64,000 nucleotides of DNA from an uncultured Coriobacteriia bacterium (GCA_902475535.1 CABRZR010000001.1:92677-156676), one strand, 5' to 3'; positions 10,448-29,575 are shown, numbered from the stretch's first letter. Program-made: numbers and translations. The notes: generated by a model not told the origin, from the sequence alone.

Positions 10448-10464
10448 TTTTCGGAGGATGTGAC

Positions 10465-12315: not shown

Positions 12316-12324
12316 GAACCCTCC

Positions 12325-13783: not shown

Positions 13784-13790
13784 GCATAGA

Positions 13791-13846: not shown

Positions 13847-13897
13847 CAATCATCTGCGGACATCAGTGACATCCCCCAACCGCCCACCGCCGCAAAA

Positions 13898-13913
13898 TTT
13901 GTTGCGCAACAGA
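13898..13913. promoter_or_regulatory. TTTGTTGCGCAACAGA palindrome (candidate operator, site 1)
   Basis: Core TGTTGCGCAACA is a perfect 12-bp palindrome about 130 bp upstream of the CDS at 14045. About 30 bp of context is shared with site 2. Confidence 0.4.
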
Positions 13914-14044
13914 ATTCACCCCCCCCCCCTTATTCTTAAACAGATTTGGATTGTTCCCATGGCTGGACGCTAGGGAACCAGAACAAGAGGCTGCCTTGGG
14001 ATATAAAGGCCCTTGCGTATTTTTCGACAAAGGGAGGCATTATC

Positions 14045-14353: not shown

Positions 14354-14362
14354 GGTGTAGCC

Positions 14363-15895
14363 GTGAGCGATTACAAAGTTGTTTTTCGAGAAGATAGTCA
14401 AAGCGATAATGCGACTGGAATAATGTGGGAGGAAAACTGCCCCATCCTAATTGAGGCAATTCAAGTATCCCGCGATGTTCAGACGGGCGAAGCATATCTC
14501 CAGCTGAAGTTTCGTAACGTTAGCAGTGAAGAGGTCTGTTCCCTTAAGGCGACGGCTATAGCAACCTTTGAAAATGGGGAGAGAGAAGACGTCGAAATAG
14601 TTCTATTGGATGCAGATGTGGAGCCAGGGAGAATCCGTAAGCCAGCTCCGATCCTTCTCAAGCGCGGGGACGTTTCCGAGGTCAGCGTAAAAATATGCTC
14701 CCTCAAGCTTCCATCTGGAGACTGGAAGTCGACGAAAAAAACGATACCTGTCCCCCGACCGAAGCAGGCTCGTCTTTCCGATAAGGCGCAAACGGAGCGC
14801 TCCCTCCAGTGGCATCCTAATCCCTCCGATTCCAAGATGCTCTACAAGGACTTCGCACTGGACAAGGAAATTGACGATCGCGAATCATGGTGGGTTTGCC
14901 CCTGTGGACAACTGAACGTCAATCGCGAGGATTGTCTGCTATGCAACACCCCAAAAACCTTCTGGCGCGAACATCCTGCTGACAACGACCGGCTTGAAAA
15001 AGAGGCGGACGAAAGAGCAGAAAAAGAGGCAGAGGAGCGAGCGCTGCAGGAAGCCGAGCAGAAGGAAAGAGCGAAAAAGAACAAGCGAATCAGGCGCATC
15101 GTGCTCACTACGAGCTTGATCGTCGTTGCCGTTATTCTTGCTATCGTGGCGGTGTTTCAAATCGTGCGTTGCGTTGTTCCCGGTGCTTATGTTGTCACCC
15201 GCTGCACGACTACGGATAGCAAAGGAAACAAGGAAACCATCGAGTACGAGCTCGATGACCGTGGGAATGTAGTAAAAGAGATAGAAGATGGGGACAAGTC
15301 TGAATGTACATATGAGCGCGATGACTACGGAGTTGTCACGAGAATGGACGATAATGAATTTGTAGTCGAGTCAGTCGATGATGGTGGGCAACCCACCAAG
15401 ATCAAGTGTTACTTTGTAGTCGAGTCAGTCGATGATGATGGACAGCCCACCAAGATCAAGTCTCAAACGAGAGAATGCAATATAGAGTGGTTTGGGGAGG
15501 GAAAAATACGCAGCATAGAATGGACCTCCTACGATGACCCAACCCGTTTCTCCAGCGATAGCTACAACGAAAACGGAGAGCTCCTAGCTTCAGATTATGG
15601 CCATTCTGATCACACTGTTGATCACGATAGCTATTCGTATGAATATGACTCAAGTGGGCGCGTAATAGCCGATACAGAAACCGGGGAATACGATTATCAG
15701 GGCGTGCCGCATTCCTATGACATCACGACAAAGTATACCTACGACAATCACGGCAACGTGATTAGGGCAGAGTCAGAACGCGGCACGAGTGTTACCGAAT
15801 GGGAATACACCTACGTAATGAACCCGTCTCCCGCCGCAATGGTGAAAAGCAGGTGTTTCCTGGGACAGGAGAGGCTCCTATCACCTCCGTTTTAG
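14363..15895 (+). CDS. Zinc-ribbon single-pass membrane protein with a YD/RHS-like repeat ectodomain, paralog of 18088..19683
   Basis: The N-terminal domain of about 130 aa is alignable with 18088 (MSDYKVVFRED / MSEYKVIFRAD). A WWVCPCGQLNVNREDCLLC zinc ribbon, an E/K/R coiled segment and a TM helix follow. YD-type repeats include YEYDSSGRVIAD and YTYDNHGNVIRAE. Confidence 0.65.
   Translation: MSDYKVVFREDSQSDNATGIMWEENCPILIEAIQVSRDVQTGEAYLQLKFRNVSSEEVCSLKATAIATFENGEREDVEIVLLDADVEPGRIRKPAPILLKRGDVSEVSVKICSLKLPSGDWKSTKKTIPVPRPKQARLSDKAQTERSLQWHPNPSDSKMLYKDFALDKEIDDRESWWVCPCGQLNVNREDCLLCNTPKTFWREHPADNDRLEKEADERAEKEAEERALQEAEQKERAKKNKRIRRIVLTTSLIVVAVILAIVAVFQIVRCVVPGAYVVTRCTTTDSKGNKETIEYELDDRGNVVKEIEDGDKSECTYERDDYGVVTRMDDNEFVVESVDDGGQPTKIKCYFVVESVDDDGQPTKIKSQTRECNIEWFGEGKIRSIEWTSYDDPTRFSSDSYNENGELLASDYGHSDHTVDHDSYSYEYDSSGRVIADTETGEYDYQGVPHSYDITTKYTYDNHGNVIRAESERGTSVTEWEYTYVMNPSPAAMVKSRCFLGQERLLSPPF
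15359..15470 (+). repeat. Tandem duplication of about 54-57 bp inside CDS 14363..15895
   Basis: TTTGTAGTCGAGTCAGTCGATGATGGTGGGCAACCCACCAAGATCAAG is repeated immediately with a few changes. The protein reads FVVESVDDGGQPTKIK / FVVESVDDDGQPTKIK. Confidence 0.9.
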
Positions 15896-15984
15896 CGAAG
15901 TACATAACGACCCATCTCCTTCGTCCATGTCGGTGATGATGTAGCGGACGCTTTTGTCCAGCCCCGCCGCTTGCCGCCGCGAAA

Positions 15985-16000
15985 TTTGTTGCGCAACAGA
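15985..16000. promoter_or_regulatory. TTTGTTGCGCAACAGA palindrome (candidate operator, site 2)
   Basis: The 16-mer is identical to site 1 and lies about 110 bp upstream of the CDS at 16112. The flank GCCGCCGCGAAA resembles the site 1 flank. Confidence 0.4.
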
Positions 16001-16111
16001 ATCGAGAAATTCTCCAATACGATGCCCTCCATAGCACGCATCCAATCATGCTGCTTTTTGGCTTATAGCAGGACTGCTTCGCTCGCTATAGCCGTAATCG
16101 AAAGGGAGGAC

Positions 16112-17056
16112 ATGATGGTGAAAAAACGTATGGGTAAAGCACGTATTCTGCTTCTCTTTCTGGCAGCAGTAATCGTGGTGTTTGCGTTTGTGGGCTGTGG
16201 CGGTGGTATTACCTCATCGAGTCTTGATGGCTATTGGATAGTGGAGCCGCAATCTGCATCAGATAAAGATTTGAAGGAAAAAGGAGTGTTCACGGTCTAC
16301 CAGTTTGAGGGAGAGAACACTTTCAGGTTGATTCTTCAGGTCCGCGGTGTAGAAGATTTCGTGAGAGAGGGAACTTATGAAATCAGAAACGGAAAGGTCT
16401 ATGTAAACCTTCCCGAAACCAGTGTGGGTTCCGGAACAGTCTCAGCTCACGGTGAAGCCATAGAAAACGCCGAGATTACAGTCAACGGCGAAACGCTAAA
16501 AACAACTGCGATAGCAACCAATGGTGCAGAGACCATCGCAAACAAGGTTACAGATGCGCAATACCAAGAGGAAGTCGCAGCCGCTGCGGCTCTTGGTCCC
16601 CAGAAGATTTCTATTGGCGAGAGCATAACAACGACGACCGCGGTTTTCACTGTAGACTCCATGGCTTTTGTTGATGAGATATACCCTTCAGACACATCCG
16701 GTTACTACACCTATATGTCAAAGCAAGACGGCCAGTCGTATCTCCTGGCAAGCGTTACCTATATGAATCCTGCCACGGAATACGAGGTGCCGGGCTATGC
16801 GACCCAAGCCTCCTTCTCCGTGGGCGGCAATACCTATGAAGCCGAGATAGAAATTGACGCGGGGTCCCGCTTTGGTCCGAGCTATAGGGTCGAGGCAAAG
16901 GAGACGTCGCGCATGTACATATACTGCCTGGTTCCAGATGCCGTGAAAGATGCCGGCGAAGTTAAGCTGACCTGGAGCATTCCCAACGAGCAGTCTTATA
17001 TGACTACCTACTACAGATCCTCGTATCCCCACGACGAGTTTTCCGTGGCGATGTAG
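16112..17056 (+). CDS. Lipoprotein with a DUF4352-like C-terminal domain
   Basis: RBS AAGGGAGGA. The lipobox is LLLFLAAVIVVFAFVGC-GGG. The C-terminal beta-rich region (VFTVDSMAFVD...LLASVTYMN...KLTWSIPN) resembles DUF4352 immunoprotective domains. Confidence 0.6.
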   Translation: MMVKKRMGKARILLLFLAAVIVVFAFVGCGGGITSSSLDGYWIVEPQSASDKDLKEKGVFTVYQFEGENTFRLILQVRGVEDFVREGTYEIRNGKVYVNLPETSVGSGTVSAHGEAIENAEITVNGETLKTTAIATNGAETIANKVTDAQYQEEVAAAAALGPQKISIGESITTTTAVFTVDSMAFVDEIYPSDTSGYYTYMSKQDGQSYLLASVTYMNPATEYEVPGYATQASFSVGGNTYEAEIEIDAGSRFGPSYRVEAKETSRMYIYCLVPDAVKDAGEVKLTWSIPNEQSYMTTYYRSSYPHDEFSVAM

Positions 17057-17136
17057 GTAAAGGCCTGGTGTCATGGCGATGCTGTTTGAAATCCCCATAT
17101 TACCCACTGCGAACAAGGCAGTCTGGAGGGTAAACG

Positions 17137-17718
17137 ATGAGTGACAATGACAATGCTGTCGAAACTCCCCCTATGGTCGAGGATGCCCCCAGCGTCCCCG
17201 CCCCATCGACCGTTCGCGAGAAGGCGCCGCAGCCATCTCCCGAAAACGTCAGCTCTCCTAAGAACGAAAAGCGTCAGAAGAAGACTGTCCTGATTGTCGT
17301 TATCGCCGTCGCGGTCGTAGTTGTGCTATTGGCGGCTATTGGCATCAGCCAGTGTGCGTTTTTCGCCACTCCCGAACAACATGCTCGACAGTTGCTAATC
17401 GGGAAATGGGAGGGTTATGGCACGAGCGTCAATGGGAAAACAAATGCGGTGACTCCAAATTCGATGACAGTGGAGTTTTCGAATGATGGCTTCAAATTGA
17501 ATCTAAAGGATTCAAAGGGCGTGACTTCGTATAGTGGCGGAAAGGACGACTGGAATGTCCGCGAAACGGGTGAGGACGTCGACGATATTTCCTACACGAT
17601 TGATCTCGAAGGAAAGTTCTTTAATGGCCAGCTTCATCTCGACGAAACTGAAGAGGAAATGTACCTCTTCATGAGCTCGATAGATGATTCGCTCATTATG
17701 GTGTTTAAGCGAGCGTGA
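17137..17718 (+). CDS. Membrane-anchored hypothetical protein (N-in, single TM, lipocalin-like ectodomain)
   Basis: RBS GGAGGG. A Pro-rich N-terminus is followed by the TM helix VLIVVIAVAVVVVLLAAIGI. I recognise no family. Confidence 0.5.
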   Translation: MSDNDNAVETPPMVEDAPSVPAPSTVREKAPQPSPENVSSPKNEKRQKKTVLIVVIAVAVVVVLLAAIGISQCAFFATPEQHARQLLIGKWEGYGTSVNGKTNAVTPNSMTVEFSNDGFKLNLKDSKGVTSYSGGKDDWNVRETGEDVDDISYTIDLEGKFFNGQLHLDETEEEMYLFMSSIDDSLIMVFKRA

Positions 17719-17797
17719 TGCTTTTCTTGGATTTGCGGGAACAGCTCTTCCAACTTCCGTTGCACCAACCTCATCAACAGGAAAGGAAATTATCGTC

Positions 17798-18079
17798 ATG
17801 TACTACTATTCGGGATTTGTCGGTTTCATGGGGTTCGTCACAATAGTCATCGCGATTGTCGTTCTCGTTGCGTGGATAATGTCGGTCTATATGTTCGTCG
17901 AGCGTGCCAAGGAGAAGAACCCTAAGATAACCGGCACCGGTTCGCTGTGGTTCATGGGTATCTTTGCCTCTCCCGTCGTGCTCGGTCTCTACGTTATAAG
18001 CATGCCTGACGCACGCCAGCGTGTGGAGACCCATGCAGGGTCCCCTGTGGCGATGCAGGACGAGCTTCCGTCTGTATAG
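17798..18079 (+). CDS. Small 2-TM membrane protein (PLD_N-like), paralog of 14045..14353
   Basis: MYYYSGFVGFMGFVTIVIAIVVLVAWIMSVYMFVERAKEKNPKITGTGSLWFMGIFASPVVLGLYVISM aligns with 14045 throughout. The RBS is GGAAAGGA. Confidence 0.6.
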   Translation: MYYYSGFVGFMGFVTIVIAIVVLVAWIMSVYMFVERAKEKNPKITGTGSLWFMGIFASPVVLGLYVISMPDARQRVETHAGSPVAMQDELPSV

Positions 18080-18087
18080 GGCCCGTC

Positions 18088-19683
18088 ATGAGCGAATACA
18101 AGGTTATTTTCCGAGCGGACGTCGATACGTCTACCGTGACGTGGGAACCCCCATGCCCACTGATGTTCGAGGCCATTCAGATTGCTCGTCATACGCGAAC
18201 CGCCGAGGCCTACCTCCAGGGAAAGGTACGCAACATCGGCGATCAGGAGATAAGTGCCTTCCAAGCAACGATTGCCGTTTGCTACGAGGACGGGTCAGAG
18301 CAAGAGGTGGAGTTCAAACCGCTTGATGCCGACATCGTTCCCGGTAGGGCCTATCAGCTGACTCCAGTACCTCTCGATCAGGGAACCGCAGTTAGAGCAA
18401 GCGGGAGGATAGAGTCCGTAAAGAACGAGTGGGGGCGTACCATCTGGGAAAGCTCTGCGGATCTGATTTCACCTCCCGAGCCCATTCATCTCCACTTGAC
18501 GACAAAAGCTCAAGATGAACGAAGCAGATTGTGGGCAAAGGCGTTTTCAAATGGGTCGTTGAGGCACGACCCGCAAATAGCGCATCTCGCTCGTACTCAC
18601 GATGCCGATGACCATGATGAATGGTGGGTGTGTCCCTGCGGTCAGGTCAACGTCAATCTTGCCAATTGCCTGTCCTGTGGATTGCCCTTAGCCTCGTGGA
18701 GCGAGGTGCCCACCGACAACGAGACCCTCGAGAAGATTGCCGACGAGCGCATCAAGAAGGAAGAGGAGGAGCGCGCCGCAAGAAAGGAAAAACGCGACCA
18801 GGCTGTCGCTAAATCCAAGGCCGCCGCTCTCAAGTTCCTGAAGATTGGCGTTCCCATCATCGTCGGGATAGTTGTCGTCGTGCTCGCCCTCATCTTCTTG
18901 ATCATCCCGACCGTGCGTTATAACAGTGCAAACGGTCTTGCCGAGGCTGCACAGACAAACGAGGAATACCAACGGGCCTACGATGCTTTTCTCGATCTAG
19001 GTGACCAGGGCGATTCCCCGCAGCGTCTCATTGCTGTTGCGACCGCCGCGGGTGACGCCGCGTACAATTCCGAAGATTACGAGAATGCGGCCTATTGGTA
19101 TGACCTTTCTGGAGACGACGAACTCTCTCAAAAGGCGAAGATGGCCTACGTCCAGGAGCACCAGAGCGCCGATGACGAGTTGACCTTCACGTACCTCAAA
19201 GAGCTCGTCGCTAACGAATACGAGGGAGCCGGAGAGCTCTATGAGCAGCTGTTCGGGTGGACCTTCGAGTTTTCAGTAGTTTCCTACAAAGACTACGCTG
19301 CTGCTGGTAACGGATGGACTCAAGGTCGGTCGGTACTTCCTAAAGCTGCTGGATATGATTCCCCTGCGTTGCTTATCATGCCAAAAGGTGGGGTGTCTGG
19401 TAGTGGAATCAAACTTGATCTTGCAATTGAGGAAATCGATGCCAAAAGTCAGATTGGTTACACGGGACAGTGGCATAAATCAGATACGAAGACCGTTTCG
19501 TTTCTTAATAGAGATGGCGAAATGTATGTAGATGAAAAGGGTGGGTCCAGCTACACAAAGATGGAAAAGCCCTTCGTTTTCATTAGTCTTGGAAGCAACA
19601 TGTATGACGAGGCGTGGCGTGTGACGGTGACTGACGGCGAGACGAGGGCCGTGCTCTTTACCGGCGAGATACGAACGTCCTAG
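18088..19683 (+). CDS. Zinc-ribbon single-pass membrane protein with a TPR/Sel1-like plus beta-rich ectodomain, paralog of 14363..15895
   Basis: The architecture matches 14363 up to the TM helix (EWWVCPCGQVNVNLANCLSC, an E/K/R-rich segment, TM IGVPIIVGIVVVVLALIFLII). The ectodomain is unrelated. Confidence 0.65.
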   Translation: MSEYKVIFRADVDTSTVTWEPPCPLMFEAIQIARHTRTAEAYLQGKVRNIGDQEISAFQATIAVCYEDGSEQEVEFKPLDADIVPGRAYQLTPVPLDQGTAVRASGRIESVKNEWGRTIWESSADLISPPEPIHLHLTTKAQDERSRLWAKAFSNGSLRHDPQIAHLARTHDADDHDEWWVCPCGQVNVNLANCLSCGLPLASWSEVPTDNETLEKIADERIKKEEEERAARKEKRDQAVAKSKAAALKFLKIGVPIIVGIVVVVLALIFLIIPTVRYNSANGLAEAAQTNEEYQRAYDAFLDLGDQGDSPQRLIAVATAAGDAAYNSEDYENAAYWYDLSGDDELSQKAKMAYVQEHQSADDELTFTYLKELVANEYEGAGELYEQLFGWTFEFSVVSYKDYAAAGNGWTQGRSVLPKAAGYDSPALLIMPKGGVSGSGIKLDLAIEEIDAKSQIGYTGQWHKSDTKTVSFLNRDGEMYVDEKGGSSYTKMEKPFVFISLGSNMYDEAWRVTVTDGETRAVLFTGEIRTS

Positions 19684-19733
19684 TCCTGTATCAGACGGTA
19701 TGGATTATCGCTGATACCAGCAATGTACATGAG

Positions 19734-20015: not shown

Positions 20016-20972
20016 CTACCGCACGCCCGCGATCACCACGTACCGCGTGCTCTTGCCGAAGACCAGCTCGTCACCGGGCTTGATAGCCACGGGCTCCCCC
20101 GTCCAGCCGCCCCGTTCGTCAGCCGGCGGCTCCACCACGACCTCGGAGCGGTCTGCGCCACTCACCAGCACGGTGCCGTTCGTCGATCCGGTGCCCTTGA
20201 CGTACCACTCGCCCGCGTTGTCGTGCCAGATGCGCGCATGATGGCGCGAGACGTCGGCCGCCACGTCGCTCAGGGAATCCTTCCCCGTCGCAAAGGCGCC
20301 CACCTCGATCTCGCTGTTCTCGCTGGGATCAAGCCAATGGGGCGACCCCATCACGTACCCATCCATCACGCGCAAGAGCCCCAGGGTCACGGACCTCTCC
20401 GGCACGTCCCAGTCGCGCACCTTCTTGGAATGCGGCGTGACAAGCGGCGTCGCCACCGGGCTTCCGTGGATTTCCTCGGCAAAGGCAAAGGCGCGGGTCG
20501 TTGCCTCGGCCACGCTAGCACTCAACGCCGCCGTCACAAAGAGCACCATGGCGATCTCGACGCGCTCCTCGACTCTAAATTCGCCGTTGTCGGACAGGCG
20601 GGCGAGCATGTTGAGGTATGGGGCGGTGTTTTGCCCGCGGTGGCTCAGGGCCGTCACCATCTCGCGTCCCGCCGTCCCCGCTATCATCGTCATGATCGCC
20701 TGGTTGCTCATGCGCTTCTTGAGGCGCGCGACGATGCGCATGGCGCATTTCTCGCAGTCGATGAAGTAGTCGCTTTTCACGGATTCCACCGGGGCGTGGA
20801 CGAGATAGCGCGAGATCCACGTCCGGTCGTTTACCCGGCTTATGGGACTCGTCCCACCCGTCAGCGGCTTTTCCGAGAGGATGAGCGTGGCCAGGTCCTT
20901 GTAGCTGATATGACCGTGCTTCTTCAGGATGGAAAACAATGCTCCCAGCGGGGTTGACGGGGTCTTTGCCAT
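20016..20972 (-). CDS. FHA-domain protein with an uncharacterised N-terminal domain of about 230 aa (copy 1)
   Basis: The C-terminal FHA signature is DVSRHHARIWHD...GSTNGTVLV...IKPGDELVFG. I do not recognise the N-terminal domain. The gene starts 15 nt after the upstream kinase gene ends. Confidence 0.75.
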   Translation of the reverse strand: MAKTPSTPLGALFSILKKHGHISYKDLATLILSEKPLTGGTSPISRVNDRTWISRYLVHAPVESVKSDYFIDCEKCAMRIVARLKKRMSNQAIMTMIAGTAGREMVTALSHRGQNTAPYLNMLARLSDNGEFRVEERVEIAMVLFVTAALSASVAEATTRAFAFAEEIHGSPVATPLVTPHSKKVRDWDVPERSVTLGLLRVMDGYVMGSPHWLDPSENSEIEVGAFATGKDSLSDVAADVSRHHARIWHDNAGEWYVKGTGSTNGTVLVSGADRSEVVVEPPADERGGWTGEPVAIKPGDELVFGKSTRYVVIAGVR

Positions 20973-20987
20973 GGAGTGCTCCTCTCC

Positions 20988-22373
20988 TCACGTTCGCGGT
21001 GTCCGGCGGGCGAGCCTTATGAGCGCCGACACGCCCACGATTGCCAAGGCAACGGTGCCGCCTGCGATGATTCGCGAACGTCCCGCCCTCCTGGCTCTAC
21101 CTACTCGCCCCCTTGCCCTCGTCGTGTTGCTCACGCAGGGTGAGAGTGGGTTTCCCCAGAGGCCGTTTCTGATGTTTGCGCTATAGGAGTCGATGAAGTC
21201 CGAGAGTGCCTTCTCCATCTCCCTTGCCGTGGGTCTACGCGCCTGCATGGGATCCAGACAAGCGAGGATCAGGTCGTCGAGCTGGCCATCCACCGCGGTC
21301 AGGACCCGTGCGAGTTCCCTGTCCGACGGCCTTCGCCCGCAGTGCGCCACCGCCTCTTCGACGAGCCGCGCCACCGACGCCTCATGGCCGAGCGTCGCTC
21401 TGATGCTGGCCGATGCCCCGTGAGCGCCCATGAGGCTCCGGGGCCAACGTCCGGTCTTCTGGAGGTAATAGGAGCGCTTCCTGCCTCCTCTTTCCAGGTC
21501 GAAGGGCGTACGGCCGTCCAGCAGCAGGTAGAGCACGCTAGCTGCGGCATAGACGTCCACCGCAGGGTCCTTGCGCAGGGTGTCGATACCGGCAACGTCT
21601 TCGGTGAGCATCTCCGGCGGGGCGAACTCCGGGGTTGCCCCTCGCAGGACGCCGTACTTCTGCGTGAGGGAGGCACGATGGTCGGGAAGCATCGCCGAGC
21701 CAAAGTCCACGAGCTTCAGGTCGAAGTGCCCCAGGTCCACCTGCTCCTCGAGCGTGTGCCTCGAGGTGTCGATCATGATGTTGGATGTCGAGATGTCACG
21801 ATGCACCACGCTGTTCTCGAGCGTGTCCATGCGGGCGAGGAGCGCGAAGAGGTCACGTCCCAGCTGCGCCGCCGTCAGCGGCGAAAGCCTTCCCGCCTCG
21901 TCCACGAAGAGGTGCCTGAGTGCCGATTGCAGCGTCTCGCCCTCGATCCATTCCATGACGATGGCATCTCTTCCGTCCAGGCGTCCAAGCCCGTAGAGCT
22001 TCGGAAATCCCCGTATGCCCGAAAGGGTGCGCAGGGTCTGGTACTCTCGCATGAACGCCTCGTGGGCGACGGCACGGTCCATGTCATCGGTCCGTGTGGC
22101 AGGTTGCGACGTGGTGTCGCGCGCTGCATCCGGGTTGTCCATGACCTTCACGGCGACGGGTTTGCCCCAGACGTCCTCGCCATAGAGAAGCCAGCCAATC
22201 CCTCCCTGGCGGCAACGGGTCCTGTCGACGAAGAGGGAGGAGAACCTCCGCACATGTGCCTCCTGCTCATCGGGAGGCAGGGTCCAGGGCGCTGAGAAGC
22301 CGTCCAGGTGAACGACCTGCAGTCCGGCTGTGCCGTGCTCGTTGTGCGTTTCCGGACATGAGGGGTTTTCCAT
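20988..22373 (-). CDS. Ser/Thr protein kinase, tail-anchored by one C-terminal TM helix (copy 1)
   Basis: Hanks motifs are present: VAVKVM, VHRDISTSNIMI, VDFGSA and FAPPE. The C-terminal TM helix is GGTVALAIVGVSALIRLA, and there is no ectodomain. Confidence 0.85.
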   Translation of the reverse strand: MENPSCPETHNEHGTAGLQVVHLDGFSAPWTLPPDEQEAHVRRFSSLFVDRTRCRQGGIGWLLYGEDVWGKPVAVKVMDNPDAARDTTSQPATRTDDMDRAVAHEAFMREYQTLRTLSGIRGFPKLYGLGRLDGRDAIVMEWIEGETLQSALRHLFVDEAGRLSPLTAAQLGRDLFALLARMDTLENSVVHRDISTSNIMIDTSRHTLEEQVDLGHFDLKLVDFGSAMLPDHRASLTQKYGVLRGATPEFAPPEMLTEDVAGIDTLRKDPAVDVYAAASVLYLLLDGRTPFDLERGGRKRSYYLQKTGRWPRSLMGAHGASASIRATLGHEASVARLVEEAVAHCGRRPSDRELARVLTAVDGQLDDLILACLDPMQARRPTAREMEKALSDFIDSYSANIRNGLWGNPLSPCVSNTTRARGRVGRARRAGRSRIIAGGTVALAIVGVSALIRLARRTPRT

Positions 22374-22453
22374 GGTGCGCGACGTTGTTTTCTACTAAGG
22401 GCGGCGGTTAGAGGGCGTCGAAAACCGGGTGGATTTGTCCCACCCGGGAATAA

Positions 22454-22502
22454 TTGCGCAACTATCATATAGTGCAAATTCCGAAATTTGTTGCACAACA
22501 AA
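22454..22502. promoter_or_regulatory. TTGCGCAA box plus TTTGTTGCACAACAAA palindrome (candidate operator, site 3)
   Basis: Read on the minus strand, TTTGTTGTGCAACAAA is followed by 16 nt, then TATATGATAG, then TTGCGCAA. This lies about 80 bp upstream of the kinase copy 1 start. Confidence 0.4.
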
Positions 22503-22552
22503 CGCGAGGTCAGCCGAGGGTTGAGGGCGCGCTTCCCTAGCCGTCGGCTCCT

Positions 22553-23533
22553 CTATCGCACGCCCGCGATCACCACGTATCGCGTGCTCTTGCCGAACAC
22601 GAGCACGTCGCCGGGCTTGATCACCACGGGCGTGCCCTCCCATCCCCCTCGCTCGTCAGCCGGCGGCTCCACCACGACCTCGCGACGGTCCGCGCCGCTG
22701 ATGAGCACGGTTCCGTTCTTCGACCCCATCCCCTCGACGTACCACTCGCCCGCGTCGTCGTGCCAGATGCGCGCATGGTGCCCCGAGACGTCGCTCTCGA
22801 CATCGGTAATGTCGCCCGGTCCCGTCGCAAAGGCGCCCACCTCGCATTGCTCTGCGAGCTCGGCATCGAGCCAGTGCGGCGATCCCATCACGTAGCCGTC
22901 CATCACGCGCAAGAGCCCCAGGTCCGTCATTTGCTCGTCGATGTGGCATCGCGCCTCAACGTCTTCCGCGTCCGGGGAGCATGGCGTGATGAGCGGCGTC
23001 ACCTTCGATGACCCGTGGATTTCGTTGGTGAAGTCGAGCGCGCAAGCCGTCGCCTTCGCGACATCGGCGCTCAGGGCGGCCGTCACGAAGAGGACCATGG
23101 CGATCTCCACGTGCTCCTCGGATCCGGATTCGTCCCCTCCGTTCAGCCTCGCGAGCATGTTGAGATAGGGAGTGGTGTCCTGCCCGACCTCTTCCAGGGC
23201 GATGACCAGCTCCTTTCCGGGTTCTCCTGCGACCATCTGCATGATTTCGCGGTTTCCCAGCGTGCTGCCCCTGCGCTTCTTGAGACGGGCGATGATGCGC
23301 AGGGCGCACTTTTCGTAGCTCACGAAGTACTCGTCCTTCACGGCCTCGATCGGTGCATGCACGAGGTAGCGCGAAACCCAGGTCCGGTCGTTCACACGGC
23401 TTGCGGGACTGACGCCTCCTGCTAATGGCTTTTCCGAGAGGATAAGCGAGGCCAGCTCCTTGTAGCTCACCTTTCCATATTTCTTCAGGATGGAGAACAG
23501 GGCTCCCAGCGGAGTCAATGTGGTTCTTGCCAC
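22553..23533 (-). CDS. FHA-domain protein with an uncharacterised N-terminal domain (copy 2)
   Basis: Colinear paralog of 20016..20972 (MARTTLTPLGALFSILKKYGKVSYKELASLILSEKPL...; FHA region DVSGHHARIWHD...GSKNGTVLI). The 3-prime end is near-identical to copy 1 at the DNA level. Confidence 0.75.
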   Translation of the reverse strand: MARTTLTPLGALFSILKKYGKVSYKELASLILSEKPLAGGVSPASRVNDRTWVSRYLVHAPIEAVKDEYFVSYEKCALRIIARLKKRRGSTLGNREIMQMVAGEPGKELVIALEEVGQDTTPYLNMLARLNGGDESGSEEHVEIAMVLFVTAALSADVAKATACALDFTNEIHGSSKVTPLITPCSPDAEDVEARCHIDEQMTDLGLLRVMDGYVMGSPHWLDAELAEQCEVGAFATGPGDITDVESDVSGHHARIWHDDAGEWYVEGMGSKNGTVLISGADRREVVVEPPADERGGWEGTPVVIKPGDVLVFGKSTRYVVIAGVR

Positions 23534-23555
23534 GGCTACCCTTTCTGCTAACTCG

Positions 23556-25283
23556 TTATGATGCCATGCTAGCCCGTGTTTTTTTCGTCGGCATCATGCG
23601 CGCCTCCTCGATGATGATGCCAAAGGACAGGGCGCCCCACGACAGCGTTGCCGATACGGCCAGTGCGCACAGCAATAGCCAGAAGGTTGCTGGTGTGGCA
23701 AACGCCGTCCCTAGTACGAAGGCGAGCACGAGCAAGGTGCCCACGCCCACGCCGCCGCCAGTCCACGGGAGTGCCGATGGCTTGCCGCGTGTCGCGATAC
23801 GCGCGATGCCTCCGGTGATTGCGGGAAGCCACAGGAGAGCTGCGATCGCCAAGCCACTCAGGGCACCGGTCCACCGAATCGGGCCGAGCGCGACGGTCGC
23901 CTCGTTCGAGTCGACGAGGCCCGCAGTCACGAAGCTCACGGCAAAGAGCAAGATGGCCGCACCTATGCCCACGCCGATGTCCCAACGCCGCGACCTTCTC
24001 GCGCTGGCGACACGTGCCCGACGTTCAAAGGCATTGCTAGCACATGGACTCAATGGCTTTTCTGCAAGGGCGTTTTCGATGTTTTCGTCATACGCCTCGA
24101 CAAACTGACCGAGGGCTTCCTGCACCTCGGTTGCGCGGGGACGGTACTCTTGAATGGAATCAAGGCACGCGAGGATCACGTCGTCGAGCTGGCCATCGAC
24201 CGCAGAGAGTGCCGCGGCCACTTTCCTCTCCGTGGGCTGCTCGCCAATTCTCTGCGCTGCTTTGCGCACGAGCTTTGCCGTCTGCGGTTCGTGCTCGAGG
24301 GTGATGTCAATCGCTGTCGAGGCGGCGTGCGCACCTTTTAGTCCGCGCGGCAGCCGCTCCGTCTTGGCCAGGTAATACGAGCGCTCCCCCTCTTCGTTCT
24401 TGCCAAGATCGAAGGGCGTGTGTCCACTCAAGAGCAGGTAGAGTACGCTTGCCGCGGCATAGACGTCCACCGCCGAGCTCTTGCGCATGGTCGAGACGTT
24501 GGCGATGTCCTCCGTCAGCATTTCCGGAGGGGCAAAGTCCGGCGTCGCACCACGGGGCATTCCGTACCGTTGCGTGAGGGATGACGAGCGAGCGGGAAGC
24601 ACTGCAGATCCAAAGTCCACGAGCTTCAGGTCGAAGCTTCCCGACTCCACCTGTTCATCGAGCGTGTGCGTCGACGTGTCGATCATGATGTTCGAGGTCG
24701 AGATGTCGCGGTGAACTATGCCGTCTTCGAGGATTTCCATGCGGGCGAGGAGGGCGAAGAGGTCACGTCCCAGCTGCGCCACCGTCAGGGGCGAGAGCCT
24801 GTTTTCATCGTCAATGGAGAGATGCCGAATTGCCGTGGCGAGGGTCTCGCCCTCGATCCACTCCATGACGATGGCGTTCTTGCCGTCCAGACGACCCGAC
24901 CCGTACAGGCGCGGAAATCCTCGCACGCCCGACAACGTGCGCAGGGTCTCGTATTCGCGACGAAACGCCACGTTGGTGATGTCGTGCATGGGTGAGGATG
25001 CAGCGTCGTCGGATGGCGCGGATGACACTGCCCGCGCGTCTTCGATGCCCATGGTCTTCACGGCTACCGGCTTGCCCCAGGTATCTTCGCCGTAGAAGAC
25101 CTGTCCCAGACCACCTTCCCTGCAGCGGTTCTCATCGATGAAGATCGTGGAGAAGCGCCGGTTATACGCCTCTTGCTCATCGGGAGGCAGAGTGCGAGGA
25201 GCGGTGAAGCCCTCCAGTCGTGCCACGCGCATGCTGGCATTGTCGCGACTGTCGTGGGGTTTATGGTTCTGCGGCTTTTCCAT
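23556..25283 (-). CDS. Ser/Thr protein kinase with a multi-pass C-terminal membrane domain (copy 2)
   Basis: VAVKTM, VHRDISTSNIMI, VDFGSA and FAPPE are present. The C-terminal part of about 150 aa holds 4-5 hydrophobic helices. Confidence 0.85.
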   Translation of the reverse strand: MEKPQNHKPHDSRDNASMRVARLEGFTAPRTLPPDEQEAYNRRFSTIFIDENRCREGGLGQVFYGEDTWGKPVAVKTMGIEDARAVSSAPSDDAASSPMHDITNVAFRREYETLRTLSGVRGFPRLYGSGRLDGKNAIVMEWIEGETLATAIRHLSIDDENRLSPLTVAQLGRDLFALLARMEILEDGIVHRDISTSNIMIDTSTHTLDEQVESGSFDLKLVDFGSAVLPARSSSLTQRYGMPRGATPDFAPPEMLTEDIANVSTMRKSSAVDVYAAASVLYLLLSGHTPFDLGKNEEGERSYYLAKTERLPRGLKGAHAASTAIDITLEHEPQTAKLVRKAAQRIGEQPTERKVAAALSAVDGQLDDVILACLDSIQEYRPRATEVQEALGQFVEAYDENIENALAEKPLSPCASNAFERRARVASARRSRRWDIGVGIGAAILLFAVSFVTAGLVDSNEATVALGPIRWTGALSGLAIAALLWLPAITGGIARIATRGKPSALPWTGGGVGVGTLLVLAFVLGTAFATPATFWLLLCALAVSATLSWGALSFGIIIEEARMMPTKKTRASMAS

Positions 25284-25315: not shown

Positions 25316-26239
25316 CTAGACCTGATTGAGTGCCTGGTAGACGTTATACAGGTCATCCAGCGTGTAAATGGTGCGCCCGTCCACGGACGCCTCGATCATA
25401 TGACCTTCGACGATCGGCAAAAAGCAGCTGGGGTGGGCACCGGGATCATCGCAGCCGTCGGCTGCGAAGAGGAACTTCTGGAACAGTTTGGCCGCGCGAT
25501 TCAGGGACTGCCAGGCAGTGGTGACGGCGGCACGCTGACTTTCGCTGGCTGCGTCGACGAAGTCGGGCAGATGGATCTTGTGCTCGTAGTAATCGGACCA
25601 CCTGATGCAATCATCGCACACGTCCATCGCAGCGTTTGCGCTTATCCAGTTCCTTATGCAGTTAGGATCCATGCCAGGACTGTAGTTCCAGTATATCGGC
25701 GAGTCGGCGACGAGCGTGGCAAGCTGCGTGTAGTAGTCCCTGACGCTGTTGTAGTCATTCACGAACTCTTCTTGGGGCGATGGCGTGGGGTCGGGAGTTG
25801 GGGTATAGGGATACCCTTCGGTGCTGGACTGCGCTTCCTGGGCTGTGAGCTGGCTCCCCGAATCTGCTGGTGCGTTTGTGCCGGGGGTGGTCACGCCTCC
25901 GGGGCCTGCCGCTCCGATGGCGCTGACGCCGGCTCCGATGACTGATGCCACCCCAGGGGTATTCGCAGCGCCCGCGGCATCCGAGCCCGCACCTGCCGCT
26001 TCCGAGGCCGGTTGGTTGTCTGCAGATCCAAAGAGGGGATTCTGGAACAGCCCATCGGATTGCTCGCCCAGTACTGGAGGTACCGCAAAGACGAAAAGCG
26101 CGAGGGAGCACGCCACCAGAAGCGTTGACGTGGTCACGAGGGCTCTGTACGCCTTGGGAAGGTGATGAAAGAAGGCGCCTATCTTCGAAGATGGCTTTGA
26201 GGTCACGGCACTCTCCTTCGGTGTTCGAACAATGCGCAT
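25316..26239 (-). CDS. Membrane-anchored or secreted hypothetical protein
   Basis: An N-terminal TM or signal anchor (LVTTSTLLVACSLALFVFAV) is followed by an A/G/P-rich linker and a domain of about 170 aa with no family I recognise. The gene ends 32 nt upstream of kinase copy 2. Confidence 0.55.
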   Translation of the reverse strand: MRIVRTPKESAVTSKPSSKIGAFFHHLPKAYRALVTTSTLLVACSLALFVFAVPPVLGEQSDGLFQNPLFGSADNQPASEAAGAGSDAAGAANTPGVASVIGAGVSAIGAAGPGGVTTPGTNAPADSGSQLTAQEAQSSTEGYPYTPTPDPTPSPQEEFVNDYNSVRDYYTQLATLVADSPIYWNYSPGMDPNCIRNWISANAAMDVCDDCIRWSDYYEHKIHLPDFVDAASESQRAAVTTAWQSLNRAAKLFQKFLFAADGCDDPGAHPSCFLPIVEGHMIEASVDGRTIYTLDDLYNVYQALNQV

Positions 26240-26282: not shown

Positions 26283-26330
26283 TTGCGCAAGTATTATATT
26301 TCGCCGGAGCTGGCTTTTGTTGTGCAACAA
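26283..26330. promoter_or_regulatory. TTGCGCAA box plus TTTGTTGTGCAACAA palindrome (candidate operator, site 4)
   Basis: Read on the minus strand, TTGTTGCACAACAAA is followed by 18 nt, then ATATAATAC, then TTGCGCAA. This ends 44 bp upstream of the ATG at 26239 and has the same architecture as site 3. Confidence 0.45.
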
Positions 26331-26351
26331 GATGCTGCTCGGTCATATGGC

Positions 26352-26388
26352 GGAATGGGACAAATGGACAGGTCATTTGTCCCATTCC
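26352..26388. repeat. Family-D palindrome
   Basis: GGAATGGGACAAATG-GACAGGT-CATTTGTCCCATTCC has 15-bp perfect arms. Relatives lie at 57497-57525 and 31885-31913. Confidence 0.85.
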
Positions 26389-26411
26389 GCAAAAAAATCC
26401 AGAATTATGCA

Positions 26412-26460
26412 TTGACAAAAAGTTAGTCGAGTCTAATATGTAGTTAACATTAGCTAACTA
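26412..26460 (+). promoter_or_regulatory. feoA promoter with candidate DtxR/IdeR-type operator(s)
   Basis: TTGACA, a 16-nt spacer, then TAATAT. TTAGTCGAGTCTAA lies in the spacer. TAGTTAACATTAGCTAACTA (26441-26460) lies just downstream and has TTAGC/GCTAA half-sites like the IdeR consensus TTAGGTTAGGCTAACCTAA. Confidence 0.55.
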
Positions 26461-26471
26461 CGGAGGTCATC

Positions 26472-26696
26472 ATGACGTTATCGGATATCAAGCCGGGAAT
26501 GAGCTGCACAGTCGTACGCTTGCGTGACCAGGGTGCCACGCGCCGCCGCATCATGGATATGGGCATTACCAAAGGCGCGCAAATCAGGGTGGATAAGGTT
26601 GCTCCGCTGGGTGATCCCGTCGATCTGACCGTGCGCGGCTATCACCTTTCGCTGCGCAAGGAGGACCTCAACAAGATCGAGGTCGAGACGGCATAA
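26472..26696 (+). CDS. feoA: Ferrous iron transport protein A
   Basis: 74 aa. MTLSDIKPGMSCTVVRLRDQGATRRRIMDMGITKGAQIRVDKVAPLGDPVDLTVRGYHLSLRKED is a typical FeoA SH3-like domain. Confidence 0.9.
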   Translation: MTLSDIKPGMSCTVVRLRDQGATRRRIMDMGITKGAQIRVDKVAPLGDPVDLTVRGYHLSLRKEDLNKIEVETA

Positions 26697-26712
26697 CCAC
26701 ACGACACAATGA

Positions 26713-26772: not shown

Positions 26773-26781
26773 AATGAAACA

Positions 26782-26865
26782 GAGACAGCGTGCCCGGCAC
26801 CGTGTCTCAAAACGAAGTCAAAACAGAAGAAATGCCGATGATTTGAGACACGGTGCCAGGCACGG
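26782..26865. repeat. Inverted pair of family-A palindromes (second copy truncated)
   Basis: GAGACAGCGTGCCCGGCACCGTGTCTCA (26782-26809), a 34-bp spacer, then TGAGACACGGTGCCAGGCACGG (26844-26865). The second copy is the reverse complement of the first. Confidence 0.85.
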
Positions 26866-26884
26866 AAAGGAAGAAAGGCACGAC

Positions 26885-29575
26885 ATGGAAACAACCATTG
26901 CGTTGGTGGGCAACCCCAACTCAGGCAAGACGACGCTGTTCAACCAGCTCACCGGCAATCACCAATACGTGGGCAACTGGCCTGGCGTGACGGTGGAGCG
27001 CAAGACCGGCCACCTCAAGAACGACAGGAACGTTCAGTTCGTCGACTTGCCGGGAATCTACTCGTTGTCCCCGTATTCGAGCGAGGAGGTCATCTCCCGC
27101 AACTACTTGATCGACGGTCATCCCGACGTCATCGTCAATATCGTCGATGCCTCGAACCTCGAGCGCAACCTTTACCTGACCACCCAGCTCATGGAGTTCG
27201 ACGTGCCCGTGGTGGTTGCGCTCAACCAAATGGATATCGTCAAGAAGCGCGGCTATACCATCAAATCCAAAGAGCTTTCCGAGCAACTCCAGGTACCGGT
27301 CGTCGAGATTTCGGCGCTCAAGGGCGACGGCCTCGAGGATCTGGTTGCCACCACCATGAAGGCGGCTCGCGAGGGCATCGTCCCGCAACCGGTCCGCTTC
27401 ACCCCCGAGCTCGAAGCCGCCCTCACCAAGATCGAGGACAAGCTCCCCAGCGTCATCCCCGACAACATGCGTCGCTACTATGCCATCAAGCTCTTTGAAC
27501 GTGACAAGGAGGCTATCGAGGAGCTCGGTGCCAAGGTCAACTGCGACGAAGTCATCTTCGAGGCCGAGAGCCTCTTCAACGACTCGTCGGATGCCATCAT
27601 CACCAACGAGCGCTATCGCTATATCGAGGGCTTCATCAAGCGCGTCCACAAGCGCGCCATCACAGGTGCGACTATTTCCGAGAAGGTCGACAGCGTGCTT
27701 ACCAACCGCATCCTCGCGCTGCCCATCTTCGTCGTGGTCATCACGCTCATCTACTACATCTCCATCAGCACCGTCGGCACCTATGCGACTGACTGGGCCA
27801 ACGACGGCGTCTTCGGCGACGGCTGGTACCTCGACCCCGTGGCCATCGTGTCAACCGAGGGTACGGCGCAGTCTGCCCTCGATGCCGCGACCGAGCCCTA
27901 CGACGAGGCGCAAACCGCCATCAGCGAGTACCTGACGCAAGCCGGCGAGGCGGGCGTCAACACCGATGCGATAGCGGCGTTCATCGGCGAGGAAGCCGAT
28001 GAGGAAGCCGACTTCGAGTCCCCCGAGTTCCAGGCGGCACTCGCCGCGTTCGAACAAGATGTCGCCAGCTCCGGCTTCGTGGCCGAGTACACCACCGTCG
28101 ACGAGGAATCCGCCATGGAGACCGACTACTTCGTGTACTATGGCGAAGCGGGCGAGGAACAGGCGCTGGCCCTTGCCGATGCCCGTAACGAGCAAATCGC
28201 TACCGAGGGTCGCGAGGGATCGGCTGAGGCCGTCGTCTACAGTTTCGATGGCGAAGCCACCGATGAGGAAACCGGCGAGGTCATCACCCAGGGTGTCGGC
28301 GTGCCCGCGCCCGAGGATCCCAGCGCCTACGGCATCTGGATTCCCGGCATCCCCGTGCTCATCGGCACCGCGCTCGAGGCCGTCGGCTGCGTCGGCTGGC
28401 TCTACGACCTCATCATGGACGGCATCGTCGCTGGCGTCGGCGCCGTGCTCGGTTTCGTGCCGCAGATCATGATCCTGTTCTTCCTGCTGGCGATTCTCGA
28501 GGCCTGCGGCTACATGGCCCGCGTCACCTTCATCCTCGACCGCCTCTTCCGCCGCTTCGGCCTGTCGGGCAAGACCTTCGTGCCCATGATCGTCGGCACC
28601 GGTTGCGGCGTGCCGGGCATCATGGCCTCGCGCACCATCGAGTCCGAAAGCGCCCGTCGCCTCACGGTCATGACCACGACCTTCATGCCCTGCTCGGCAA
28701 AGCTGCCGATCATCGCCCTCATCGCTACGGCCATCTTCGGTGGCGTGTGGTGGGTCGCTCCGCTGGCGTACTTCATGGGCATCGCCGCCATCATCGTCTC
28801 GGGCATTATCCTGCGTAAGACCAGGCCGTTCATGGGCAAGGTCACGCCCTACGTCATGGAGCTGCCCGAATATCGCCTGCCGCGCTTTGTCGACCTGCTG
28901 CGCAGCATGTGGGATCGCGCCTGGGCCTTCATCAAGAAGGCGGGCACCATCATCCTGCTCGCCACGATCGTGGTCTGGTTCCTGTCGGGTTACGGCATCT
29001 ACGAGGGCCAGTTCATGTGGGTCGGCGAGGATCTGATGGACTACTCGTTCCTCGCGTACTTCGGCAATGCCTTCGCGTGGATCTTCGCGCCGCTCGGCTT
29101 CAACAACTGGGAGTGTGCGTCCACCGTTATCACCGGCCTCATCGCAAAGGAGAACGTCATCTCGACCATGGCCGTGGTGTACGGCAGCGATCCCAACGTC
29201 GCGTGGACCAGCGCCTACATGGCGTCGCTCGCGGCAACGACTGGCTCCGTCCTGCTCGTGCCTGTCGCGGCCTTCGCCTTCATGACCTTCCAGCTGCTCT
29301 GCGCGCCGTGCTTCGCGGCCATGGGTGCCATCAAGCGTGAGATGGGTGGCTTCAACAAGTGGTTCTGGGCCGCCATCGGCTGGGAGTGCGGATTCGCCTA
29401 CGTGATTTCGCTGATCATCTTCCAGATTGGCGCCTGGGCCGTGACCGGTATCTTCAGCCTCGGCACCATCGTCGCCATCGCGCTCATCGCGGCGTTGCTC
29501 TGGGCGCTCTTTCGTCCGGCCAGCAAGCCCATGGCACCTGCGCAGGTGGACACGGCCGTAAAGGCAGCCGCATAG
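26885..29575 (+). CDS. feoB: Ferrous iron transporter FeoB with an enlarged acidic extracytoplasmic loop
   Basis: The G domain starts METTIALVGNPNSGKTTLFNQLTG. Gate motifs (GFVPQIMILFFLLAILEACGYM, MIVGTGCGVPGIMASR) and a polytopic C-terminus are present. The ATG at 26885 follows GGAAAGGAAG. Confidence 0.92.
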   Translation: METTIALVGNPNSGKTTLFNQLTGNHQYVGNWPGVTVERKTGHLKNDRNVQFVDLPGIYSLSPYSSEEVISRNYLIDGHPDVIVNIVDASNLERNLYLTTQLMEFDVPVVVALNQMDIVKKRGYTIKSKELSEQLQVPVVEISALKGDGLEDLVATTMKAAREGIVPQPVRFTPELEAALTKIEDKLPSVIPDNMRRYYAIKLFERDKEAIEELGAKVNCDEVIFEAESLFNDSSDAIITNERYRYIEGFIKRVHKRAITGATISEKVDSVLTNRILALPIFVVVITLIYYISISTVGTYATDWANDGVFGDGWYLDPVAIVSTEGTAQSALDAATEPYDEAQTAISEYLTQAGEAGVNTDAIAAFIGEEADEEADFESPEFQAALAAFEQDVASSGFVAEYTTVDEESAMETDYFVYYGEAGEEQALALADARNEQIATEGREGSAEAVVYSFDGEATDEETGEVITQGVGVPAPEDPSAYGIWIPGIPVLIGTALEAVGCVGWLYDLIMDGIVAGVGAVLGFVPQIMILFFLLAILEACGYMARVTFILDRLFRRFGLSGKTFVPMIVGTGCGVPGIMASRTIESESARRLTVMTTTFMPCSAKLPIIALIATAIFGGVWWVAPLAYFMGIAAIIVSGIILRKTRPFMGKVTPYVMELPEYRLPRFVDLLRSMWDRAWAFIKKAGTIILLATIVVWFLSGYGIYEGQFMWVGEDLMDYSFLAYFGNAFAWIFAPLGFNNWECASTVITGLIAKENVISTMAVVYGSDPNVAWTSAYMASLAATTGSVLLVPVAAFAFMTFQLLCAPCFAAMGAIKREMGGFNKWFWAAIGWECGFAYVISLIIFQIGAWAVTGIFSLGTIVAIALIAALLWALFRPASKPMAPAQVDTAVKAAA

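Follow-up and report, generated by a model that had tools for sequence, protein, structure and literature searches.

An ORF-X-kinase-FHA cassette conserved in Coriobacteriia, a predicted transmembrane phospho-signaling system with two orphan proteins

PknA and PknB are membrane-anchored Hanks-type kinases encoded together with the FHA partners FhaA (Rv0020c) and FhaB/FipA (Rv0019c), and in FhaA a long linker separates the N-terminal domain from the FHA domain at the C-terminus. In the TagR-PpkA-Fha1-PppA pathway of the type VI secretion system (T6SS), a membrane Ser/Thr kinase works with an extracytoplasmic accessory protein and with a dedicated FHA protein as substrate or adaptor, and the EmbR/PknH pair couples a membrane kinase to a protein that joins an FHA domain and a second, helical domain. 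In the FHA domains studied, the Arg of a Gly-Arg motif is needed for phosphothreonine (pThr) binding, and the atypical RIO/Bud32-like kinases have Ser or Thr at the Lys position of the catalytic loop (H-x-D-L-S/T-x-x-N). Coriobacteriia, including Eggerthellaceae and Collinsella, abound in the gut and metabolize drugs and dietary compounds; to our knowledge, almost nothing is known about their signaling, and our literature searches on Hanks-type kinases and FHA proteins in this class returned nothing relevant. In the type VIIb secretion system (T7SSb), the membrane-anchored pseudokinase EssB/YukC contacts the FHA domains of EssC/YukB independently of phosphorylation, and the pThr-binding residues are not conserved (PMC9600267). 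Features of these described systems have counterparts in a locus of an uncultured Coriobacteriia bacterium that encodes a stalked membrane protein (ORF-X), a Hanks-type kinase and an FHA protein; it lies within a stretch of 64,000 nucleotides (nt) (GCA_902475535.1 CABRZR010000001.1:92677-156676), hereafter the window, whose positions are numbered from its first letter.

On the minus strand of the window, ORF-X is followed by the kinase and FHA genes KIN2 and FHA2 and by a second such unit, KIN1 and FHA1 (Table 1). The four kinase and FHA open reading frames (ORFs) lie exactly where a preliminary description of this DNA had placed them, with gaps of 22 nt (KIN2/FHA2) and 15 nt (KIN1/FHA1). Pfam Pkinase matched KIN1 and KIN2 with 69.4 and 74.1 bits (cut-off 31.7), and Pfam FHA matched the C-termini of FHA1 and FHA2 with 31.6 and 30.8 bits (cut-off 20.7); full-length FHA1 and FHA2 share 68% identity, and residues 1-417 of KIN1 and KIN2 share 62%. 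The cassette is real, conserved, uncharacterized and class-restricted, and two of its proteins are orphans. We consider it reasonably probable that it constitutes a Coriobacteriia-specific three-component transmembrane Ser/Thr phospho-signaling system, acting from ORF-X through the kinase to the FHA protein, and that its kinase-FHA part was duplicated in tandem, together with a promoter block, long ago.

The conservation of gene order carries much of this view. FHA1, searched against 5.8 billion proteins, recovered only 51 clusters, none of which is named, and a second scan, covering one genome per GTDB species, yielded 85 loci (80 retained). The retained loci belong to Eggerthellaceae (Slackia, Adlercreutzia, Senegalimassilia, Cryptobacterium and others) and Coriobacteriaceae (Collinsella and Enorma), and the 85 species loci appear to cover part of the class only. 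The kinase gene is adjacent to and upstream of the FHA gene, on the same strand, in about 76 of the 80 genome loci, and a profile of the ORF immediately preceding the kinase found an ORF-X homologue at that position in 70 of 72 non-redundant loci. In 38 loci the stop codon of ORF-X overlaps the kinase start by 4 nt; in the window, ORF-X lies 32 nt upstream of KIN2. Because kinase and FHA genes adjoin in essentially every locus with upstream sequence, we regard them, on gene order, as a functionally linked pair. The preliminary description had proposed a two-gene module; judged from synteny, the conserved unit comprises three genes and is confined to Coriobacteriia, that is, to gut Actinobacteria. 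All three genes run in the same direction, translational coupling between them is frequent, and they are co-inherited across Eggerthellaceae and Coriobacteriaceae. Identity levels follow taxonomy (42-52% in Eggerthellaceae and ~37-41% in Collinsella), which is consistent with vertical descent. All-against-all clustering of the neighboring ORFs yielded no conserved neighbor beyond the three genes, the next cluster being present in only 13 loci, and a wider conserved synteny was therefore rejected.

Some cassette contigs of the 'cleanbin' assembly series carry labels from outside the class, namely Christensenellaceae, Prevotella, Sphaerochaetaceae, Succinivibrio, Methanomethylophilaceae (an archaeon) and others; the loci concerned are L066, L075, L076 and L079 (and L042, L051, L053, L061, L062, L069 and L077). 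Their organization is near-identical and their kinase and FHA ORFs are of equal lengths under four different taxon names. Because near-identically organized loci of one assembly series carry four taxon labels, these labels almost certainly reflect mis-binning of a Coriobacteriia genome.

A second, more divergent FHA subfamily exists at ~35% identity. In the P0050-type locus, the one member examined, a kinase of the same family (37% identity, HRDLSPRN) lies tail-to-tail with the FHA gene, 4 nt downstream of it; the kinase adjoins the FHA gene in both arrangements, and the link thus survives a change of gene order. At this locus (L086, 3-1508 and 2881-3930, both on the minus strand), the FHA gene stands between a gene for a KAP-family P-loop NTPase and the convergent HRDxS-family kinase gene; the kinase has DLG in place of DFG, and the FHA protein is the only member seen with the canonical Gly-Arg. 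In the P0045 lineage (L082; 5963-7543, 7551-8126 and 11070-12242), an ORF of 191 amino acids (aa), not a typical ORF-X, precedes the kinase, a zinc-ribbon/VWA/YARHG protein is encoded before that ORF, and a zinc-ribbon protein after. This setting recalls the archaeal pair of ArnA (FHA, zinc ribbon) and ArnB (VWA), and the FHA domain of ArnA is the top structural match described below.

ORF-X begins with a short basic N-terminus, followed by one transmembrane (TM) helix, a long low-complexity stalk rich in Gly, Ser, Asp and Pro, and a C-terminal domain of ~150 aa that is predicted to lie outside the cell. In the window, the helix spans residues ~33-55 and has a conserved '...A(V/I)PP...' exit motif, and the stalk is rich in Gly, Ser, Ala and Pro. 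The ectodomain occurs in two unrelated types across the family, of which the window has the Cys-containing one, and the two ORF-X types share only the TM segment and the exit motif (hhalign probability 97.5% over 35-37 columns). No match to ORF-X was found in Pfam, NCBIfam, PADLOC or PDB sequences, and its annotation through Pfam or PDB sequences, which was tried, came to nothing.

Motifs and TM helices of the kinase were counted in 76 family members. The beta3 Lys is kept as [AV]xK in all of them, as is A[PA]PE; DFG is present in 73, and HRD in nearly all, with HGD in 2. The catalytic-loop Asn, the region of the alpha-C Glu and a GT-type P+1 loop are likewise kept across the family; the kinase is of the RD type, with Ser/Thr in its activation loop. 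VAVK, VHRDISTSN, DFG and APPE were all found in both window kinases, in agreement with the preliminary description. Pkinase is by far the best Pfam match and is accompanied by weak matches to RIO1, ABC1 and APH, the first two of which span the N-lobe through the catalytic loop; the C-lobe is that of a full eukaryotic protein kinase (ePK), with APE and the GT-type P+1 loop. The nearest PDB sequence is the yeast IRE1 kinase only (E=2e-8), which marks the family as a very divergent branch. Four C-terminal TM helices were predicted in 51 of the 76 kinases, and KIN1 is the sole member with one. The earlier distinction between a tail-anchored KIN1 and a multi-TM KIN2 is upheld by predictions of one and four segments. 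Taken together, the kinase is best described as a divergent Hanks-type enzyme with a predicted four-helix membrane bundle and no predicted ectodomain.

The AlphaFold2 model of full-length FHA1, built from a 29-sequence alignment, reached a predicted local distance difference test (pLDDT) score of 86.5 and consists of a ten-helix N-terminal bundle (8-169), a disordered linker (171-192) and an FHA beta-sandwich (196-316); modeled alone, the N-terminal domain reached a pLDDT of 88.8 and a predicted template modeling score (pTM) of 0.85. In Foldseek, the full-length model matched the FHA structures of ArnA (5a8i), CEP170 (4jon), CT664 (3gqs) and kanadaptin, with target TM-scores of 0.66-0.76 for the first three. 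The N-terminal ~170 aa of the FHA proteins had no match in Pfam, NCBIfam or PADLOC, and the N-terminal domains of 16 members had no Pfam match at E<=5; a PDB profile search returned designed helical repeats only, and Foldseek returned nothing better than E=1.8 (PDB) or E=1.2 (viral models). The preliminary description had been unable to assign this domain, which agrees with these searches, and had suggested a winged helix within its first 40 or so residues. That suggestion was dropped: residues 1-60 form only helices in the model, with no wing strands, and no winged-helix or helix-turn-helix (HTH) match was obtained for the first ~40-60 aa by Pfam, PDB or Foldseek. As modeled, the domain has a confident all-helical fold and represents an orphan family; the FHA protein that carries it is cytoplasmic. 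A profile search with it against 1.84 billion representative proteins gave 245 clusters; among the best 150 of these, full-length members are almost all ~310-330 aa long, and shorter entries look like fragments. Within these 150, the near-uniform length indicates that the domain occurs together with this FHA domain. Its first ~62 residues are basic in most members (isoelectric point 9-10) and contain its most strongly conserved Arg, Trp and Ser residues.

Residues of the FHA domain were counted in 86 main-family sequences. The Ser and His of Ser-x-x-His are present in 85 and in all 86, respectively, the Asn of Asn-Gly in 75, and Asn-Gly-Thr in most members; the conserved Ser is mostly followed by Ala or Gly. 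The replacement of the Gly-Arg Arg, which is considered below, marks the FHA domain as non-canonical in its predicted pThr-binding residues. In the linker, Thr175 of TPLVTP is kept in 73 of the 86 sequences, and the +3 position is non-hydrophobic in most; a pT-x-x-[ILV] FHA-ligand motif at this site was accordingly abandoned.

The second kinase-FHA unit was found only in the clade of the window, that is, in the same species (L001) and in a sister species with ~78% protein identity (L084/L085), where the KIN1 orthologue has 453 aa. The KIN1-FHA1 unit has no ORF-X of its own. Sliding codon windows placed the orthologues (window versus L084) closer to each other than the paralogues over most of the genes. 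The paralogues show a synonymous divergence (dS) of 0.74 (FHA genes) and 1.13 (kinases), and in orthologue comparisons of all four genes the ratio of non-synonymous to synonymous divergence (dN/dS) lies at 0.20-0.28 (KIN1, 0.20). Because both copies occur in both species, orthologues are closer than paralogues, and dS and dN/dS take these values, the duplication is old, with both copies functional and under purifying selection; the preliminary description had proposed a recent duplication or gene conversion from near-identical 3' ends of the FHA genes. These ends are in fact not near-identical, matching at 74 of the last 85 nt (87%) and at ~81-83% of the last ~250 nt, where third-codon-position identity is 63-70%. 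All four FHA copies (window and L084) are about equally similar there (76-87%), a pattern better explained by constraint on the FHA core than by recent duplication or 3' gene conversion. In L084 (7464-8444 versus 10001-10966), a tract of ~30-45 codons at codons ~121-150 shows 86-89% nt identity between the FHA paralogues, with 87% at third positions, and orthologues are 74-77% identical there; it is likely a local gene-conversion tract, and the window has no such tract.

The 179-nt spacer before KIN1 contains a block of ~50 nt like that before ORF-X, set in sequence that cannot be aligned. Both transcription units are thus preceded by the 14-bp palindrome TTGTTGNNCAACAA (TTGTTG-N2-CAACAA), 78 nt upstream of ORF-X and 115 nt upstream of KIN1. 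The window holds 4 such sites against 0.22 expected; in addition to the two in Table 1, they are at 13899-13912 and 15986-15999, in a low-GC island, one of them before an orphan lipoprotein gene. The related loci (L002-L084; 1.1 Mb) hold 57 sites against ~1 expected: 25 lie just upstream of ORF-X in many genera, 2 upstream of KIN1 copies and 1 upstream of a stand-alone FHA gene (L016), and many of the remainder stand before genes for lipoproteins, choline-binding proteins or leucine-rich-repeat surface proteins. Unrelated genes account for about half of all sites. Even when up to 2 mismatches are allowed, Senegalimassilia, several loci of Slackia and Collinsella, and the P0045 and P0050 lineages have no palindrome before the module. 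A 6-2-6 palindrome at about -41 has the format and position of class II sites of the Crp/Fnr family (PrfA type). The palindrome probably serves as the operator for a regulon in Coriobacteriia; no description of it was found in the literature searched. The divergent intergenic region between feoA and ORF-X (26350-26390) also contains a perfect 17-nt inverted repeat, GCGGAATGGGACAAATG-N7-CATTTGTCCCATTCCGC, which has a half-site at 22433-22442, is conserved in L002 and L084, and whose core recurs at 57497-57525 against a TATAAT upstream of a gene for a thiamine pyrophosphate-dependent (acetolactate-synthase-like) enzyme (57588-59306). This repeat may represent a second type of operator.

In the signaling reading that we prefer, ORF-X would be an extracytoplasmic sensor or co-receptor that exposes a head domain on a wall-spanning low-complexity stalk to an envelope or extracellular cue, and it would signal through its conserved TM helix to the four-helix bundle of the kinase by TM-TM contacts. 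The RD kinase would autophosphorylate, and the FHA protein would dock on it as a dedicated adaptor or effector whose output passes through the orphan helical domain. Without a phosphate-binding Arg in the FHA domain, docking would be non-canonical, either in a variant pThr mode or independently of phosphorylation. KIN1-FHA1 would then be a sub-functionalized branch that no longer depends on ORF-X.

Several points weigh against this scheme. The sensor role of ORF-X is inferred from topology and synteny, and the roles of kinase and FHA protein are predictions for every member. A phosphatase partner was not seen in the window; in agreement with the preliminary description, none of the 36 larger ORFs scanned against Pfam encodes a PP2C domain. 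The Arg position of Gly-Arg, aligned to the GR of 1UHT, is occupied by Ala in 69 sequences, Ser in 8, Thr in 7, Cys in 1 and Met in 1 (n=86). In the kinase, the catalytic loop reads HRD[IV]S[PLT]xN, with Ser at the Lys position of HRDxKxxN in 76 of 76 members, a register confirmed by the alignment of this Ser to the Lys of HRDLKPQN in IRE1. The RIO/Bud32-like kinases share such a Ser, a likeness that the weak RIO1, ABC1 and APH matches fit, and protein-kinase activity may therefore be weak or unusual. The earlier judgment that the kinases look catalytically competent holds for the main motifs and stays plausible, with the caveat of the family-wide Ser and of a partner FHA domain without the canonical Arg.

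The same departures would suit a phosphorylation-independent complex, in which the kinase fold is mainly a scaffold or ATPase and is bound constitutively by the Arg-less FHA domain, as EssB/YukC is by the FHA domains of EssC/YukB. The absence of the Arg from all 86 FHA domains, with Ala or Gly mostly following the Ser, the Ser for Lys throughout the 76 kinases, the weak Pfam matches beside Pkinase, the lack of a phosphatase in the cassette and the T7SSb precedent itself all point in this direction. However, pseudokinases typically lose catalytic residues, whereas the beta3 Lys, HRD Asp, Asn, DFG and APE are kept family-wide here, and the FHA domain retains Ser-x-x-His and, in most members, Asn-Gly-Thr; we regard this explanation as unlikely. 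A different output would follow from an EmbR-like logic, in which the FHA protein is a kinase-controlled transcription factor whose N-terminal domain binds TTGTTG-N2-CAACAA, autoregulates both units and co-regulates lipoprotein and surface-protein genes. The excess of the palindrome in the window and the related loci, its sites before ORF-X, the KIN1 copies and the stand-alone FHA gene, its activator-like spacing of ~18 nt upstream of a -10-like hexamer, and the basic first ~62 residues with their conserved Arg, Trp and Ser argue for this, yet neither Pfam nor PDB sequences nor Foldseek gave an HTH or winged-helix match, the box has a Crp/Fnr-type format that makes a separate global regulator at least as likely a binder, the site is missing before the module in the genera, loci and lineages named above, and unrelated genes hold about half of the sites. 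This interpretation is doubtful, and we give only a slim chance to its fuller form, in which the N-terminal domain is a new DNA-binding fold on this palindrome and a one-step pathway leads from the membrane kinase to an FHA transcription factor that recognizes pThr in an Arg-less mode, autoregulates and controls a lipoprotein and surface-protein regulon.

Two further explanations connect the cassette to named kinase systems. An equivalent of PknA/B with FhaA/FhaB, regulating cell division or wall synthesis, would agree with an actinobacterial host, a membrane-anchored kinase, a stalk of the wall-spanning type in ORF-X, and the fact that FhaB/FipA is the best NCBIfam match of the FHA domain. 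That match (NF049868), however, scores only 29.7 and 28.4 bits (cut-off 125) and covers the FHA domain alone; the PknB/Stk1 PASTA model (NF033483) reaches ~52 bits against 450, there is no PASTA domain, and the C-terminus consists of one or four TM helices with short loops. Neither pstP, rodA, pbpA nor a divisome gene is conserved nearby, and the cassette seems to be present in part of the class only, so that this equivalence is improbable; the module is distinct from the fhaA-fhaB-pstP-rodA-pbpA-pknAB cluster, as the preliminary description had maintained. An anti-phage or conflict system with a Ser/Thr kinase at its core, such as Stk2, PD-T4-6 or Mad6 of MADS, is suggested by the best PADLOC matches of both kinases, mad6 (E 2e-29 and 2e-32) and PD-T4-6 models, by the low-GC variable island that the module abuts and the toxin-antitoxin genes of the sister species, and by the KAP P-loop NTPase at the P0050-type locus. 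Against this, the PADLOC matches are limited to the generic kinase domain and are lacking for both ORF-X and the FHA proteins, the NCBIfam MAD6 model gives 46-50 bits against a cut-off of 460, no other MADS genes, conserved companion genes or effector domains were found, the cassette is confined to one class with identity following taxonomy, and dN/dS is 0.2. Membership in a known defense system was rejected on model cut-offs, and we hold a defense function to be very improbable.

Table 1. Features of the cassette, its duplicated unit and the adjoining promoter-like blocks in the window
Feature	Position (nt)	Residues (aa)	Strand	Basis or remark
ORF-X, 307 aa, first cassette gene	25316-26239		-	ORF call, single TM segment, synteny
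KIN2, 575 aa, ancestral-type kinase	23556-25283		-	Pfam Pkinase 74.1 bits, motifs, TM count
KIN2 kinase domain	24099-25118	~56-395	-	N-terminal extension before domain conserved
KIN2 four C-terminal TM helices (predicted)	23610-23984	434-558	-	Short loops only
FHA2, 326 aa	22553-23533		-	ORF call, Pfam
FHA2 N-terminal domain, orphan, all-helical (predicted)	23012-23533	1-~174	-	Followed by disordered linker
FHA2 C-terminal FHA domain	22556-22927	~203-326	-	
KIN1, 461 aa, duplicated kinase	20988-22373		-	ORF call, Pfam, TM prediction
KIN1 kinase domain	21189-22208	~56-395	-	
KIN1 single TM tail anchor (predicted)	21009-21077	433-455	-	
FHA1, 318 aa	20016-20972		-	ORF call, AlphaFold2, Foldseek
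FHA1 N-terminal helical domain (predicted)	20463-20972	1-170	-	
FHA1 disordered linker (predicted)		171-192		
FHA1 FHA domain	20019-20390	195-318	-	
Promoter/operator-like block before KIN1	22454-22501		-	Shared with sister species L084; palindrome TTGTTGTGCAACAA (22488-22501), 18-nt spacer, TATGAT (22464-22469), TTGCGCAA (22454-22461)
Promoter/operator-like block before ORF-X	26283-26330		-	Divergent from feoA-feoB; palindrome TTGTTGCACAACAA (26317-26330, minus-strand reading), 18-nt spacer, TATAAT (26293-26298), TTGCGCAA (26283-26290)

Ordinary chromosomal genes surround the module, including feoAB, tatC and genes for NaPRTase and an rRNA methyltransferase, among others. The low-GC island that it abuts (~12000-19700; GC content 0.50 versus ~0.60) encodes a Bro-N protein and several orphan lipoproteins or membrane proteins (ORFs 14363-15895, 15971-17056, 17137-17718 and 18088-19683); homologues of the island proteins of 361 and 531 aa occur near the cassette in a dozen other loci, and at the matching position in L084, PIN and HigB toxin-antitoxin genes replace the island. 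An IS200-like Y1 transposase gene lies at 38498-39241 on the minus strand (Pfam Y1_Tnp, E=3e-13). On the plus strand at ~26440-26700, a small unlisted feoA ORF (MTLSDIKPGMSC...) precedes feoB (26774-29575), and a DtxR/IdeR-like box, TAGTTAGCTAATGTTAACTA, stands between a promoter-like TTGACA-16-TAATAT (26412-26439) and the feoA start codon; a DtxR-family repressor is encoded nearby in the sister locus L084.

Two of the three cassette proteins represent orphan families, one of them with a confident predicted fold that has no structural neighbor in the libraries searched, and the usual sensor ectodomain of the kinase is seemingly replaced by a separate stalked membrane protein. The family-wide loss of the FHA Arg and of the catalytic-loop Lys provides a natural test of how far a system can depart from textbook FHA-kinase recognition and Hanks catalysis, and the ancient kinase-FHA duplicate, lacking ORF-X and three TM helices, offers a ready-made experiment in pathway insulation. 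The significance of the cassette would rise if its Arg-less FHA domain binds pThr in a new way, or if its helical domain is a new DNA-binding fold.

Compared with PknA/B and FhaA/B, the cassette has neither a PASTA ectodomain nor a pstP/rodA/pbpA context, its N-terminal FHA-protein domain is unrelated, its FHA domain is without the Gly-Arg Arg, and its kinase has four TM helices and Ser for the loop Lys. It differs from GarA/OdhI in architecture, the OdhI model giving 13.5 bits against a cut-off of 200. Unlike the T6SS pathway, it has no T6SS genes, no PP2C partner and no periplasmic domain in the kinase, and its ORF-X and N-terminal FHA-protein domain are orphans. As with EmbR/PknH, a conserved palindrome precedes the operon, to which the FHA protein may or may not bind; the domain order of the FHA protein is reversed relative to EmbR, and neither the Trans_reg_C winged helix nor BTAD was detected by Pfam in 16 N-terminal domains (E<=5), with no Foldseek neighbor at E<1. 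Whereas T7SSb has a pseudokinase, the cassette kinase keeps almost all catalytic residues, its FHA domain keeps Ser-x-x-His and Asn-Gly, and no T7SS genes are present; unlike RIO/Bud32, the kinase has a full ePK C-lobe with APE and the GT-type P+1 loop, and Pkinase is its best match. By these comparisons the cassette falls outside every named system, yet it would work like the known kinase-FHA pairs.

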